Assembly (NCBI RefSeq): GCF_046105845.1
Contig: NZ_CP151004.1
DNA: 64,000 nt
Source: Escherichia coli
Lineage (GTDB): Bacteria > Pseudomonadota > Gammaproteobacteria > Enterobacterales > Enterobacteriaceae
Strand: one strand, 5' to 3'
In this document: piece by piece, positions 2,224 through 54,428 of the stretch
How the letters are laid out: the number at the start of each line of letters is the position of its first letter
Numbering within the stretch: the first letter of the stretch is position 1
Position numbers and translations under genes: made by a program
The notes under the pieces: model-generated
Databases searched by the model: none
The model's input: only the letters and a program-made list of their open reading frames with translations
What the model was told of the DNA's origin: nothing

Positions 2224-9070
<6,847 letters not shown>

Positions 9071-18991: not shown

Positions 18992-21841
18992 TTGAAATAC
19001 CTTGCTTCTTTTCGTACAACCCTGAAAGCCTCGCGCTACATGTTCAGAGCATTGGCGTTAGTGCTCTGGCTGTTGATTGCTTTTTCATCCGTTTTTTACA
19101 TCGTTAATGCGTTACATCAGCGAGAATCGGAAATTCGTCAGGAATTTAATCTGAGTTCCGATCAGGCTCAGCGCTTTATTCAACGTACCTCTGATGTGAT
19201 GAAAGAGCTGAAGTACATCGCTGAAAATCGCTTATCGGCAGAAAACGGTGTGCTTTCCCCGCGTGGACGAGAAACGCAGGCGGATGTGCCTGCGTTTGAA
19301 CCGCTGTTTGCCGACTCCGATTGTTCCGCAATGAGTAACACCTGGCGAGGCTCTCTGGAGTCATTGGCGTGGTTTATGCGCTACTGGCGCGATAATTTCT
19401 CTGCGGCTTACGATCTCAACCGGGTATTTTTAATCGGCAGCGATAACCTCTGCATGGCCAATTTCGGTCTGCGTGATATGCCAGTGGAACGCGATACCGC
19501 GTTGAAAGCGTTGCATGAACGCATTAATAAATATCGAAATGCACCACAAGATGATAGTGGCAGTAACCTCTACTGGATCAGCGAAGGTCCGCGCCCTGGC
19601 GTCGGGTATTTTTACGCGTTGACGCCAGTTTATCTGGCGAACCGGTTGCAGGCGCTTTTGGGTGTCGAGCAGACTATCCGGATGGAGAATTTTTTCTTAC
19701 CTGGTACGTTGCCGATGGGGGTTACCATTCTTGATGAAAATGGTCATACCCTGATTTCGCTTACCGGACCAGAAAGCAAAATTAAGGGCGATCCTCGCTG
19801 GATGCAGGAACGCTCCTGGTTTGGCTATACGGAAGGTTTCCGGGAGCTGGTGCTGAAGAAAAATCTGCCTCCCTCATCGCTAAGCATCGTTTATTCGGTG
19901 CCGGTTGATAAGGTGCTGGAACGCATTCGCATGTTGATCCTTAACGCAATTTTGCTGAATGTGCTTGCCGGAGCTGCATTGTTTACTCTCGCGCGGATGT
20001 ACGAGCGGCGTATTTTCATTCCGGCGGAAAGCGACGCCTTGCGACTGGAAGAACATGAGCAGTTTAATCGCAAGATTGTCGCCTCCGCGCCAGTGGGTAT
20101 CTGCATTTTGCGTACCGCTGATGGCGTCAATATTTTAAGTAACGAACTGGCGCATACCTATCTCAATATGCTTACGCATGAGGACCGCCAACGGCTGACA
20201 CAAATTATCTGTGGGCAGCAGGTCAATTTTGTTGATGTCCTGACCAGTAACAATACCAATCTGCAAATCAGCTTCGTCCATTCGCGCTATCGTAATGAAA
20301 ACGTGGCCATTTGTGTGCTGGTGGATGTTTCTTCGCGCGTGAAGATGGAAGAGTCGTTGCAGGAGATGGCACAAGCAGCGGAACAGGCGAGCCAGTCAAA
20401 ATCGATGTTCCTTGCCACCGTCAGTCATGAGCTGCGAACGCCGCTGTATGGCATTATCGGTAACCTGGATCTGTTGCAAACCAAAGAGTTACCGAAAGGC
20501 GTCGATCGTCTGGTGACGGCAATGAACAACTCTTCCAGCCTGTTGTTGAAAATTATCAGCGATATTCTCGACTTCTCGAAGATTGAATCGGAACAGTTGA
20601 AGATCGAACCACGTGAGTTTTCACCGCGTGAAGTGATGAACCACATCACCGCCAACTATTTGCCGCTGGTGGTACGCAAGCAGCTAGGCTTGTACTGCTT
20701 TATTGAACCGGATGTGCCAGTGGCCTTAAATGGCGACCCAATGCGTTTACAGCAGGTCATCTCCAACCTGTTGAGTAACGCCATAAAATTCACCGATACC
20801 GGCTGTATAGTTCTGCATGTTCGCGCTGATGGCGATTATCTCTCTATCCGCGTTCGCGATACCGGCGTGGGTATTCCAGCGAAAGAAGTGGTGCGCTTGT
20901 TTGATCCCTTCTTCCAGGTCGGAACGGGCGTACAGCGTAACTTCCAGGGGACCGGTCTGGGGCTGGCGATTTGTGAAAAACTGATCAGCATGATGGACGG
21001 CGACATCTCGGTAGATTCAGAACCGGGAATGGGCAGCCAGTTTACCGTGCGTATTCCGTTGTACGGCGCTCAGTACCCGCAGAAAAAAGGCGTGGAAGGG
21101 TTGAGTGGTAAACGCTGCTGGCTGGCGGTCCGCAATGCGTCGCTCTGTCAGTTCCTGGAAACCAGTTTGCAGCGCAGCGGCATCGTCGTTACAACATACG
21201 AAGGGCAGGAACCGACTCCCGAAGATGTGTTAATCACTGACGAGGTAGTGAACAAAAAATGGCAGGGTAGAGCGGTAGTGACCTTCTGTCGTCGCCATAT
21301 TGGTATTCCGCTGGAGAAAGCGCCAGGGGAGTGGGTACACAGTGTGGCTGCCCCGCATGAGCTACCGGCATTGTTGGCGCGTATTTATTTGATCGAGATG
21401 GAGAGCGACGATCCTGCTAACGCTCTGCCGTCGACGGACAAAGCGGTCAGCGATAACGACGATATGATGATTCTGGTCGTGGATGATCATCCGATTAACC
21501 GGCGTCTTCTGGCAGATCAGTTGGGATCGTTGGGCTATCAATGTAAAACCGCGAATGATGGCGTCGATGCGCTTAATGTACTTAGCAAGAATCATATTGA
21601 TATCGTGCTTAGCGACGTCAACATGCCAAATATGGATGGTTACCGCTTGACGCAACGCATTCGTCAGTTGGGACTGACGTTGCCGGTAATCGGAGTAACT
21701 GCTAATGCGTTGGCTGAAGAGAAGCAGCGGTGTCTGGAGTCCGGTATGGACAGCTGCCTGTCGAAGCCGGTAACGCTGGATGTGATAAAACAGACGCTAA
21801 CGGTATATGCCGAGAGGGTCAGGAAATCGCGGGATTCGTAG
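18992..21841 (+). CDS. rcsC: Hybrid sensor kinase RcsC, 949 aa
   Basis: TTG start (no in-frame ATG upstream before a stop); H-box VSHELRTPL, C-terminal receiver domain. Confidence 0.95.
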   Translation: MKYLASFRTTLKASRYMFRALALVLWLLIAFSSVFYIVNALHQRESEIRQEFNLSSDQAQRFIQRTSDVMKELKYIAENRLSAENGVLSPRGRETQADVPAFEPLFADSDCSAMSNTWRGSLESLAWFMRYWRDNFSAAYDLNRVFLIGSDNLCMANFGLRDMPVERDTALKALHERINKYRNAPQDDSGSNLYWISEGPRPGVGYFYALTPVYLANRLQALLGVEQTIRMENFFLPGTLPMGVTILDENGHTLISLTGPESKIKGDPRWMQERSWFGYTEGFRELVLKKNLPPSSLSIVYSVPVDKVLERIRMLILNAILLNVLAGAALFTLARMYERRIFIPAESDALRLEEHEQFNRKIVASAPVGICILRTADGVNILSNELAHTYLNMLTHEDRQRLTQIICGQQVNFVDVLTSNNTNLQISFVHSRYRNENVAICVLVDVSSRVKMEESLQEMAQAAEQASQSKSMFLATVSHELRTPLYGIIGNLDLLQTKELPKGVDRLVTAMNNSSSLLLKIISDILDFSKIESEQLKIEPREFSPREVMNHITANYLPLVVRKQLGLYCFIEPDVPVALNGDPMRLQQVISNLLSNAIKFTDTGCIVLHVRADGDYLSIRVRDTGVGIPAKEVVRLFDPFFQVGTGVQRNFQGTGLGLAICEKLISMMDGDISVDSEPGMGSQFTVRIPLYGAQYPQKKGVEGLSGKRCWLAVRNASLCQFLETSLQRSGIVVTTYEGQEPTPEDVLITDEVVNKKWQGRAVVTFCRRHIGIPLEKAPGEWVHSVAAPHELPALLARIYLIEMESDDPANALPSTDKAVSDNDDMMILVVDDHPINRRLLADQLGSLGYQCKTANDGVDALNVLSKNHIDIVLSDVNMPNMDGYRLTQRIRQLGLTLPVIGVTANALAEEKQRCLESGMDSCLSKPVTLDVIKQTLTVYAERVRKSRDS

Positions 21842-21921
21842 GACGGATAAGGCGTTTACGCCGCATCTGGCATTCAGTGCAAATGCCAGATGCGACGCTG
21901 ACGCGTCTTATCTGGCCTACA
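21842..21921. repeat. REP/BIME element (two inverted REP units) between convergent rcsC and rcsB
   Basis: gacggataaggcgtttacgccgcatctggca ... tgccagatgcgacgctgacgcgtcttatctggcctac, the canonical GCCGGATG/CTTATCCGGCCTAC-type REP. Confidence 0.8.
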
Positions 21922-21926
21922 GATGA

Positions 21927-22577
21927 TTAGTCTTTATCTGCCGGACTTAAGGTCACAGAAGAGAGATAATTCAGCAGAGCAATATCGTTCTCGACACCCA
22001 GCTTCATCATCGCAGATTTCTTCTGGCTACTGATGGTTTTGATACTGCGGTTCAGCTTTTTAGCGATCTCGGTCACTAGGAAACCTTCCGCAAACAGGCG
22101 TAGAACTTCACTCTCTTTTGGCGAGAGACGCTTGTCACCGTAACCACCAGCACTGATTTTTTCCAACAGGCGAGAAACGCTTTCCGGGGTAAATTTCTTC
22201 CCTTTCTGCAGCGCGGCGAGAGCTTTCGGCAGATCGGTCGGTGCACCTTGTTTCAGCACGATCCCTTCGATATCCAGATCCAATACCGCACTAAGAATCG
22301 CCGGGTTGTTGTTCATAGTCAGAACAATGATCGACAGGCTTGGGAAATGGCGCTTGATGTACTTGATTAAGGTAATGCCATCGCCGTACTTATCGCCAGG
22401 CATGGAGAGATCGGTAATCAACACATGCGCATCCAGTTTCGGCAGGTTGTTGATCAGTGCTGTAGAGTCTTCAAATTCGCCGACAACATTCACCCACTCA
22501 ATTTGCTCAAGTGATTTGCGAATACCGAACAAGACTATCGGATGGTCATCGGCAATAATTACGTTCATATTGTTCAT
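21927..22577 (-). CDS. rcsB: Response regulator RcsB (LuxR/FixJ family), 216 aa
   Basis: ORF track 21927..22622; start set at ATG 22577 (MNNMNVIIADDHPIV...). Confidence 0.95.
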   Translation of the reverse strand: MNNMNVIIADDHPIVLFGIRKSLEQIEWVNVVGEFEDSTALINNLPKLDAHVLITDLSMPGDKYGDGITLIKYIKRHFPSLSIIVLTMNNNPAILSAVLDLDIEGIVLKQGAPTDLPKALAALQKGKKFTPESVSRLLEKISAGGYGDKRLSPKESEVLRLFAEGFLVTEIAKKLNRSIKTISSQKKSAMMKLGVENDIALLNYLSSVTLSPADKD

Positions 22578-25577: not shown

Positions 25578-25670
25578 AAAAAAAACCGGATGCGAGGCAT
25601 CCGGTTGAAATAGGGGTAAACAGACATTCAGAAATGAATGACGGTAATAAATAAAGTTAATGATGATAGC
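25578..25670 (-). ncRNA. micF: MicF antisense sRNA (93 nt), divergent from ompC
   Basis: Minus strand reads GCTATCATCATTAACTTTATTTATTACCGTCATTCATTTCTGAATGTCTGTTTACCCCTATTTCAACCGGATGCCTCGCATCCGGTTTTTTTT, matching remembered micF including its terminator hairpin and U-tail. Confidence 0.9.
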
Positions 25671-25825
25671 GGGAGTTATTCTAGTTGCGAGTGAAGGTTT
25701 TGTTTTGACATTCAGTGCTGTCAAATACTTAAGAATAAGTTATTGATTTTAACCTTGAATTATTATTGCTTGATGTTAGGTGCTTATTTCGCCATTCCGC
25801 AATAATCTTAAAAAGTTCCCTTAAA

Positions 25826-32011: not shown

Positions 32012-33670
<1,659 letters not shown>

Positions 33671-33675
33671 TGATG

Positions 33676-33798
33676 TGCCACATCCGGCATGGTATGCCGG
33701 ATGTGGCGTATGCAGATAAGACGCGTCAGCGTCGCATCAGTCAACCGGCTCGGGCGTTAGATGTCGGATGCGGCGTGACCGCCTTATCCGACCTACGG
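33676..33798. repeat. BIME/REP cluster between convergent mqo and eco
   Basis: Palindrome gccacatccggcat-ggt-atgccggatgtggc followed by further REP units (cagataagacgcgtcagcgtcgcatc; gatgtcggatgcggcgtgaccgccttatccgacctac). Confidence 0.8.
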
Positions 33799-33819
33799 GG
33801 TGGAGCACTTCACGGCAGT

Positions 33820-34308
33820 TTAGCGGACTACCGCGTTGTCAATTTTCTCTTCCGCCTTCCAGATGCGGTACTTCACATCCACATTGTCTGGCGTATACAC
33901 CACGATCGGCAGCTTGCTGTTATAACGCAGCATTCCGGCATCGCCCAGATACGCGGTGACAAATTTCTTCTCTTTCTTGCCATCCGGGCAGGCCATCATC
34001 GTGGAAACCGGCGAGCTAACTTTATCAAAGACGTAATAATCATAGCCCCAGCCTTCCAGCGTTTTGCTTTCCAGCTTCCCGCCGAGACGATGCAAATTGC
34101 AATCGACTTCCAGCGTCTGGCCGATTAACAGTTCTACTTTCAGGGTAGATTCATCTTCTTGCGGGGTTAACTGAATCACCTGACGCTTCATGCCTTTTTC
34201 AGCTTGTGGATAAGGCGCGATTTTTTCCAGTGGCTGGACGCTTTCTGCCGCCCAGGCGGAAGTGGTAGCGAAAGCGGCAAACAATACTGCAGGTAGAATG
34301 GTCTTCAT
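33820..34308 (-). CDS. eco: Ecotin (periplasmic serine protease inhibitor), 162 aa
   Basis: ORF track 33820..34329; start set at ATG 34308 ([20 protein letters not shown]...). Confidence 0.93.
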
Positions 34309-52889: not shown

Positions 52890-53897
52890 ATGAGTCTGGA
52901 TATCAACCAGATTGCTCTGCACCAGCTTATCAAGCGTGATGAGCAGAACCTTGAGCTGGTGTTGCGCGATTCATTGCTGGAACCGACAGAAACCGTCGTT
53001 GAGATGGTGGCAGAACTGCATCGGGTCTATAGCGCCAAAAATAAAGCTTACGGCTTGTTTAGCGAAGAGAGTGAACTGGCGCAGACGCTGCGTTTACAGC
53101 GTCAGGGCGAAGAGGACTTTCTGGCATTTAGCCGCGCGGCAACCGGTCGCCTGCGTGACGAATTAGCGAAATATCCTTTTGCTGACGGTGGATTCGTGCT
53201 GTTTTGCCACTATCGCTATCTGGCGGTGGAGTATTTGCTGGTGGCAGTTCTGAGCAATCTGAGCAGTATGCGCGTTAACGAAAATCTCGACATCAACCCA
53301 ACCCATTATCTTGATATCAATCATGCGGATATTGTTGCGCGTATCGATTTAACCGAGTGGGAAACCAATCCAGAGTCGACCCGCTATCTCACTTTCCTGA
53401 AAGGGCGAGTAGGGCGCAAAGTGGCGGATTTCTTTATGGATTTCCTCGGTGCCAGCGAAGGGTTAAACGCGAAAGCGCAAAACCGTGGGCTGTTGCAAGC
53501 GGTCGATGATTTCACTGCCGAAGCACAACTGGATAAAGCAGAGCGACAGAACGTGCGCCAGCAGGTTTATAGCTACTGTAATGAGCAGCTACAGGCAGGT
53601 GAAGAGATTGAACTGGAATCGCTGTCGAAAGAGCTGGCAGGCGTCAGCGAAGTGAGCTTCACGGAGTTTGCGGCTGAAAAAGGCTACGAACTGGAAGAGA
53701 GCTTCCCGGCAGACCGTAGCACACTGCGTCAGTTGACGAAGTTTGCCGGTAGCGGCGGTGGCTTGACTATTAACTTTGATGCGATGCTGTTAGGTGAACG
53801 CATCTTCTGGGATCCAGCAACCGATACCCTGACCATTAAAGGCACGCCGCCGAATTTGCGCGATCAATTGCAGCGCCGGACGTCTGGCGGCAATTAA
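52890..53897 (+). CDS. yejK: Nucleoid-associated protein YejK (NdpA), 335 aa
   Basis: Translation [19 protein letters not shown]...; divergent from yejL. Confidence 0.93.
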
Positions 53898-53911
53898 TCG
53901 GTTTTGTGTTC

Positions 53912-53950
53912 TGAATGCCAGATGCGGCGTGAACGCCTTATCTGGCCTGC
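53912..53950. repeat. REP element downstream of yejK
   Basis: gaatgccagatgcggcgtgaacgccttatctggcctgc. Confidence 0.75.
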
Positions 53951-53991
53951 AAAAAATAGCAATACCGTAATCAGGCATAATTTGCAGAGAC

Positions 53992-54019
53992 AAAAAACCC
54001 CGCCGGAGCGGGGTTTTTT
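53992..54019. terminator. Bidirectional rho-independent terminator between convergent yejK and rplY
   Basis: aaaaaa-ccccgc-cgga-gcgggg-tttttt. Confidence 0.85.
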
Positions 54020-54035
54020 ACAACTTATTCAGCAA

Positions 54036-54428
<393 letters not shown>

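Follow-up and report, generated by a model that had tools for sequence, protein, structure and literature searches.

Palindromic REP units of classes y and z2 at three convergent gene junctions in a segment of the Escherichia coli genome

In the window, the whole 64,000-nt stretch of Escherichia coli DNA analysed here, palindromic elements occupy three gaps between converging genes: rcsC-rcsB, mqo-eco and yejK-rplY. These gene names, all but rplY already given in the preliminary description, agree with the RefSeq annotation of matching E. coli genomes. REP-derived sequence makes up 80% of the rcsC-rcsB gap and 68% of the mqo-eco gap. Five REP units are recognised, all of them between convergent ORFs, in keeping with the extragenic position, mostly at gene 3' ends, of E. 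coli REPs in general; the sole overlap with a gene is the rcsC stop codon, which lies within a GTAG tetranucleotide. The three gaps are laid out below, with E-values from the REP profile HMM.

rcsC-rcsB gap: 85 bp, convergent; rcsC ends at 21841, rcsB ends at 21927 (minus strand)
21838-21872, plus strand: y REP unit, 35 nt, E 1.3e-9; the rcsC stop codon TAG (21839-21841) lies within its GTAG (21838-21841)
21873-21883, no strand: head-to-head linker, 11 nt (TTCAGTGCAAA), short as in BIME-2; aligns to the naRNA4 linker
21884-21920, minus strand: z2 REP unit, 37 nt, E 2.5e-10; GTAG at 21920-21917; 6 nt past the rcsB stop codon (21927-21929)
mqo-eco gap: 149 bp, convergent; mqo ends at 33670, eco ends at 33820 (minus strand)
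33668-33670: mqo stop codon TGA, followed by a 6-nt spacer before the palindrome
33677-33707, no strand: perfect palindrome, GCCACATCCGGCAT-GGT-ATGCCGGATGTGGC; 14-bp arms, 3-nt loop
33708-33743, plus strand: z2-like REP unit with degenerate foot, 36 nt; GTAT for GTAG and a 1-nt deletion (GTATGCAGATAAGACGCGTCAGCGTCGCATCAGTCA); HMM match at 33715-33742, E 3.3e-7
33744-33761, no strand: head-to-head linker from z2 to y, 18 nt; aligned to the linker of the naRNA4 model, it shows 7 inserted nt
33762-33796, minus strand: y REP unit, 35 nt, E 1.6e-8; GTAG at 33796-33793; compensatory foot changes GGTCGG...CCGACC
33797-33819, no strand: tail flank, 23 nt, up to the eco stop codon (33820-33822, minus strand)
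yejK-rplY gap: 138 bp, convergent; yejK ends at 53897, rplY ends at 54036 (minus strand)
53916-53950, minus strand: single y REP unit, 35 nt, E 1.6e-7; GCAG for GTAG; 18 nt past the yejK stop codon (53895-53897)

The profile HMM was built from 13 distinct REP units of K-12 loci that have no relation to the window, namely REP325 (yjdM-yjdN), the BIMEs on either side of rayT, and the pgi-to-malE region. Exactly five matches in the 64-kb window are significant, with E from 2.5e-10 to 3.3e-7, and all lie inside the three gaps; the next best match has E 0.31. The units of the window do align with REPs from other loci. The Rfam family naRNA4 (RF02564), whose model is itself one y-z2 BIME unit of REP325, matches the rcsC-rcsB pair with 73.8 bits at 21841-21917 on the plus strand, above its gathering score of 59.5. 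The mqo-eco pair reaches 54.4 bits (E 3.5e-9), a little below this threshold because of its longer linker and damaged z2 foot. Moreover, the y unit at rcsC shares 31 of 32 positions with the REP oligonucleotide present in crystals of TnpA_REP (PMC3479197). The independent HMM, the naRNA4 model and this oligonucleotide bear out the REP/BIME identity proposed in the preliminary description; the elements at all three sites are genuine, ordinary copies of a well-known repeat. As to dispersal, near-identical REP units are present at unrelated K-12 loci, and a search with the rcsC-rcsB query has a median of 5 match places in each genome.

Two other candidates in the window were considered. The half-match of the HMM at 6573-6586 (E 0.31) has neither a partner arm nor a GTAG and is apparently a chance match. 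A palindrome at 2812-2841, found in a structural-pattern search, lies inside an ORF of 576 aa and is therefore not taken as a REP.

The sites also stand far beyond chance in shuffling and folding tests, and all three lie essentially where they had been placed beforehand. A correction concerns the rcsC side, where the first unit starts at 21838 and not at 21842, its GTAG including the rcsC stop. The head motif GCCKGATGCGRCG has 21 matches in the window at up to 2 mismatches, compared to 8.7 +/- 2.7 in shuffled sequences, and none of 100 shuffles reached 21; at up to 1 mismatch there are seven matches, all within the three REP loci. Every single unit and every composite region folds much better than its shuffled versions (z from -2.8 to -8.7). 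For the composite regions, folded on both strands, z ranges from -3.7 to -8.7 and none of 200 shuffles folds as well. The whole rcsC-rcsB BIME is predicted to form one long hairpin, its y unit pairing with its z2 unit, at -50 to -52 kcal/mol (z about -8). The y unit of the mqo-eco gap gives a hairpin of -19.1 kcal/mol (z -3.85), and the hairpin of the yejK unit has z values of -4.2 and -5.8.

The stems are also maintained between units. In an alignment of 22 REP units, in which the reference units were chosen by a pattern requiring GATAAG and GCATC and the window units without any pattern, pairing is kept in 97.5% of the stem cells, and in 5 of 11 pairs both sides have changed, as in the compensatory U-A pair of the mqo-eco y unit at alignment columns 6/36. 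The covariation score was reached by none of 500 shuffles. The AA/GC stem mismatch, a described feature of REPs (PMC8266576, PMC3333891), is invariant in all 22 aligned units, including all five of the window.

Class names are used here by length. The published lengths for E. coli REPs are 35 nt for y, 29 nt for z1 and 37 nt for z2 (PMC8266576), and the 37-nt unit of REP325 is called Z2 in Harris et al. 2026; a figure legend in PMC3479197 labels the REPtron partner z1, and those units are 37 nt in sequence. A BIME-2 consists of y and z2 in inverse orientation with a short linker (PMC3333891). The rcsC-rcsB element has this form, namely y on the plus strand (35 nt), a linker of 11 nt and z2 on the minus strand (37 nt). 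The mqo-eco element, z2 on the plus strand followed after 18 nt by y on the minus strand, is likewise of BIME-2 type and is tandemly amplified in other strains; it differs in its linker, which is 18 nt instead of about 11, and in the damaged foot of its first z2 unit (GTAT and the 1-nt deletion). Tandem copies varying by strain, which characterise BIME-2, are found at both loci, the window carrying one copy at each. DNA gyrase is reported to bind and cleave BIME-2 (Espeli and Boccard 1997, as cited in PMC8266576).

Two other composite types were compared. BIME-1, composed of y and z1 with a long L linker carrying an IHF site, shares with the window the inverse arrangement of a y and a z-class unit. 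However, the gaps of the window contain no 29-nt z1 unit and no long linker, their linkers being 11 and 18 nt. The best match to a z1 consensus has 10 mismatches of 30 positions, so that no z1 unit is assigned here. BIME-1 is rejected because the IHF consensus is absent from all three gaps. REPINs, as described by Bertels and Rainey, are REP doublets that form one long hairpin, and the rcsC-rcsB pair resembles them in folding as a single long hairpin. They were, however, defined in Pseudomonas with its own REP sequences.

The literature on REP and BIME elements goes back to the 1980s. For two of the three sites, the K-12 counterpart already bears a catalogue name, REP161 (eco-mqo) or REP162 (rcsB-rcsC), and has the same locus, flanking genes and unit types as in the window. 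The K-12 RefSeq record was searched for repeat features and lists none; therefore, the names were taken from the supplement of Harris et al. 2026. The BIME of the rcsC-rcsB gap is the counterpart of the rcsC-proximal copy in REP162. The palindrome next to mqo corresponds to the REP161 hairpin, the first 60 nt of the gap differing by three substitutions. Overall, it is highly probable that the three sites are ordinary E. coli REP elements of classes y and z2, at two of them in BIME-2-type y/z2 pairs, for which we propose a role in 3' UTRs.

The palindrome at 33677-33707 deserves separate treatment. Each of its arms is the head half of a y REP, and together they form a 100% complementary inverted repeat, which in RNA is lengthened by G-U pairs to about 33673-33711. 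Alone it folds at -27.8 kcal/mol (z -6.2). Against the REP HMM it gives only weak half-length matches, to model positions 20-37 and 23-37. Therefore, the preliminary count of at least three units in the mqo-eco gap holds for two REP units, and the remaining element is a palindrome of two head halves, that is, a non-canonical REP-derived hairpin. In at least 4092 of 5426 E. coli genomes, the palindrome occurs at a single place, which is always the 3' end of mqo. The GTAT variant of the z2 unit that follows it is also present at the first position in K-12 and the other strains compared. At the other end of the gap, the 23-nt tail flank is near-identical to the tail-to-tail linker of the 113-bp repeat in multi-copy strains, K-12 differing at 2 positions. 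In the seven-copy strains VE-V11-M and BL21, a GG insertion in the right arm (ATGCCGGGGATGTGGC) breaks the symmetry of the palindrome that is kept in the window and K-12.

The number of units had been said to vary between strains, and this is the case at mqo-eco and rcsC-rcsB but not at yejK. Between mqo and eco (149 bp), the window has a single 113-bp z2-y unit, compared to 6 in REP161, where a tandem repeat of 5.9 copies with 96% matches fills a gap of 714 bp. Among ten sequenced examples, gaps of 149, 375, 601, 714 and 829 bp correspond to 1, 3, 5, 6 and 7 copies and contain 2, 6, 10, 12 and 14 distinct HMM-detected units, respectively (the two loci of 829 bp have one extra overlapping HMM match beyond the 14). 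In a larger sample of 59 genomes, where counts were inferred from gap length (the match span of a flank-only query) and not from sequences, 40 have one copy, 4 have four, 8 have five, 6 have six and 1 has seven. This sample is not random, since its members were evenly spaced by BLAST rank. Taken together, the mqo-eco gap occurs with 1, 3, 4, 5, 6 or 7 copies.

At rcsC-rcsB, the single BIME of the window (85-bp gap) compares to two in REP162 (199-bp gap). Among 29 sampled genomes, 7 have the one-BIME length and the other 22 are about 114 bp longer, corresponding to two BIMEs. Whole BIME units of 113-114 bp are thus gained or lost between strains, consistent with published reports that the number of tandem BIMEs differs between strains (PMC8266576, PMC3333891). 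The yejK unit, on the other hand, does not vary: its length is constant in 29 of 29 sampled genomes (one is off by 1 bp), and it is identical in K-12, including its degenerate CTGC. Copy-number change would most likely result from slippage or unequal recombination between tandem units, possibly helped by TnpA_REP. The second BIME in the K-12 rcsB-rcsC gap, which lies within K-12 positions 2316000-2318000, is preceded by GGGAATCGTAGG, which echoes the last rcsC codons (GGGATTCGTAGG); it therefore looks like a tandem duplication that took in the gene end. The z2 unit of this second copy is degenerate (GATAAGACACTAACGCG).

As DNA, REPs would be non-autonomous elements, recognised as single-stranded hairpins by the RAYT/TnpA_REP protein if their GTAG is intact. 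TnpA_REP binds single-stranded REP with GTAG, and its cleavage takes place at CT in the inverted partner and in linkers; it requires both the GTAG and the stem mismatch (PMC8266576, PMC3333891). In the window, GTAG is intact in three units, at 21838 (plus strand), 21920 (minus strand) and 33796 (minus strand). In the other two, the tetranucleotide reads GTAT (33708) and GCAG (53950). These two units should no longer be substrates of TnpA_REP and would best be viewed as decayed REPs; the other three retain GTAG. The rayT gene lies outside the window, its K-12 position being 247.6 kb.

When transcribed, the hairpins would form part of the 3' UTRs of both genes of a converging pair, where they may stop or attenuate transcription in both directions, partly via Rho, and may block 3'-to-5' exonucleases, so that the 3' ends of the mRNAs are defined and protected. 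A hairpin whose start is no more than 15 nt from a stop codon may, in addition, stall ribosomes at termination and reduce the protein yield; the distances in the window are 6 nt at mqo (or less with the G-U extension), 0 nt at rcsC, where the stop is inside the GTAG, and 6 nt at rcsB. The most likely role of the elements, by analogy, would thus be that of 3'-UTR hairpins that end or attenuate transcription, shield mRNA 3' ends and possibly brake translation. The preliminary description called them structural or RNA-stability elements, which is also how the literature regards REPs. For the strain of the window, we infer these functional steps from K-12 studies. The source of the bidirectional-terminator list in Harris et al. 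2026, their reference 47, is presumably Ju et al. 2019. According to the supplement of Harris et al. 2026, the mapped bidirectional terminators of K-12 include, under REP161, the palindrome next to mqo and, for REP162, each of its two z2 units. The same authors report that REP325 is a partial Rho-dependent terminator and mRNA stabiliser, and that a REP between convergent genes correlates with higher expression of both (Harris et al. 2026). In their data, mRNA half-lives of REP-terminated genes did not differ in general, and the effects varied widely (Harris et al. 2026); therefore, any single REP may do little.

At the yejK-rplY junction, most of the terminating is probably done by another element. 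A perfect 12-bp hairpin flanked by A/T runs, AAAAAACCCCGC-CGGA-GCGGGGTTTTTT, is located at 53992-54019, between the yejK REP and rplY. This is a strong, classic bidirectional intrinsic terminator, separate from the adjoining REP. Its K-12 counterpart is the mapped bidirectional terminator given for rplY:yejK, and the REP is not (supplement of Harris et al. 2026).

The absence of any obvious constraint on the mqo-eco copy number, which ranges from 1 to 7, may be taken to mean that the elements do nothing for the host at these loci and are selfish or neutral DNA, relics of RAYT-driven spread that are harmless between convergent genes. The two units without the GTAG that TnpA_REP needs and the lack of a general REP effect in published half-life data (Harris et al. 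2026) are consistent with this possibility. It is nevertheless rather unlikely. Compensatory changes maintain the stem pairing, the mqo-proximal hairpin is kept in the thousands of genomes counted above, the yejK unit is unchanged in K-12, and the K-12 counterparts coincide with mapped bidirectional terminators. Moreover, neutral spread is compatible with a role in 3' UTRs and does not exclude it. Another possibility is that the main role of the elements is translational braking, in which hairpins at most 15 nt from the mqo, rcsC and rcsB stops would lead to ribosome stalling, mRNA cleavage, tmRNA tagging and less protein. A REP less than 16 nt from a stop codon lowers translation according to Liang, Rudd and Deutscher 2015, as summarised in PMC12306157, and the three distances given above fall within this rule. 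However, the units at eco (23 nt) and yejK (18 nt) are beyond it. As the main role, braking is likewise rather unlikely.

The naRNA4 match of the rcsC-rcsB pair, being above the gathering score, might suggest that y-z2 pairs are genes for naRNA4-like nucleoid-associated sRNAs compacting the chromosome with HU. The match does no more than restate the REP identity, because the Rfam family is one REP325 BIME unit. In addition, REP325 and naRNA4 produced no measurable nucleoid compaction and REP-REP contacts were not seen (Harris et al. 2026), so that such a function is very improbable. An identity as intrinsic terminators, CRISPR repeats or chance palindromes has hardly any likelihood, even though the sites are G+C-rich hairpins at gene ends. 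The U-tract pattern of intrinsic terminators is absent in the mqo-eco and rcsC-rcsB gaps, and no terminator-like sites were found in 33400-34100 or 21600-22150. The preliminary description was right to set the elements apart from CRISPR repeats, since the orientation of the units alternates and the K-12 "spacers" themselves repeat together with the units in the 113-bp period, unlike CRISPR spacers. Chance palindromes are excluded by the HMM E-values and the shuffle tests. The reading as REP elements acting as 3'-UTR hairpins is therefore preferred. Within this reading, a more speculative idea may be mentioned, to which we attach a low probability. The mqo palindrome may be a fixed, locus-specific exaptation that serves as a shared bidirectional terminator and, given its place 6 nt past the stop of mqo, also slows translation; the variable array of 1-7 BIMEs of 113 bp would then be a lineage-specific dial on mqo/eco expression.

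Apart from annotation, the finding is of little consequence. Annotators should avoid reading these gaps as sRNA genes, CRISPR arrays or intrinsic terminators. The gap between mqo and eco shows a clean polymorphism in length, from 149 to 829 bp in 113-bp steps, and can break assemblies or serve as a typing marker. Since the stops of mqo, rcsC and rcsB are within 6 nt of a strong hairpin, they are reasonable test cases for the lowering of translation by near-stop REPs.

Some further observations concern the surroundings of the sites. Among 5,426 complete E. coli genomes, the highest identity to the kilobase around the mqo-eco gap (33300-34300) is 99.0%, and only one genome reaches it. The rcsC region (21500-22260) reaches 99.9% and the yejK region (53560-54300) 100%, each in a different strain. 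This contrast across the window suggests that the background is mosaic (recombined) or that the mqo-eco allele is rare. The eco gene is a pseudogene in two sampled genomes, OkiPb01695 and PM4, one copy having an internal stop and one being truncated beside an ISVsa5-family transposase. Rfam models also place on the minus strand a ribosomal protein L25 leader at 54342-54367, just upstream of rplY, a tRNA gene at 50553-50626, and the gene for the antisense sRNA MicF at 25578-25671 (116.8 bits), upstream of the rcsD-rcsB operon.
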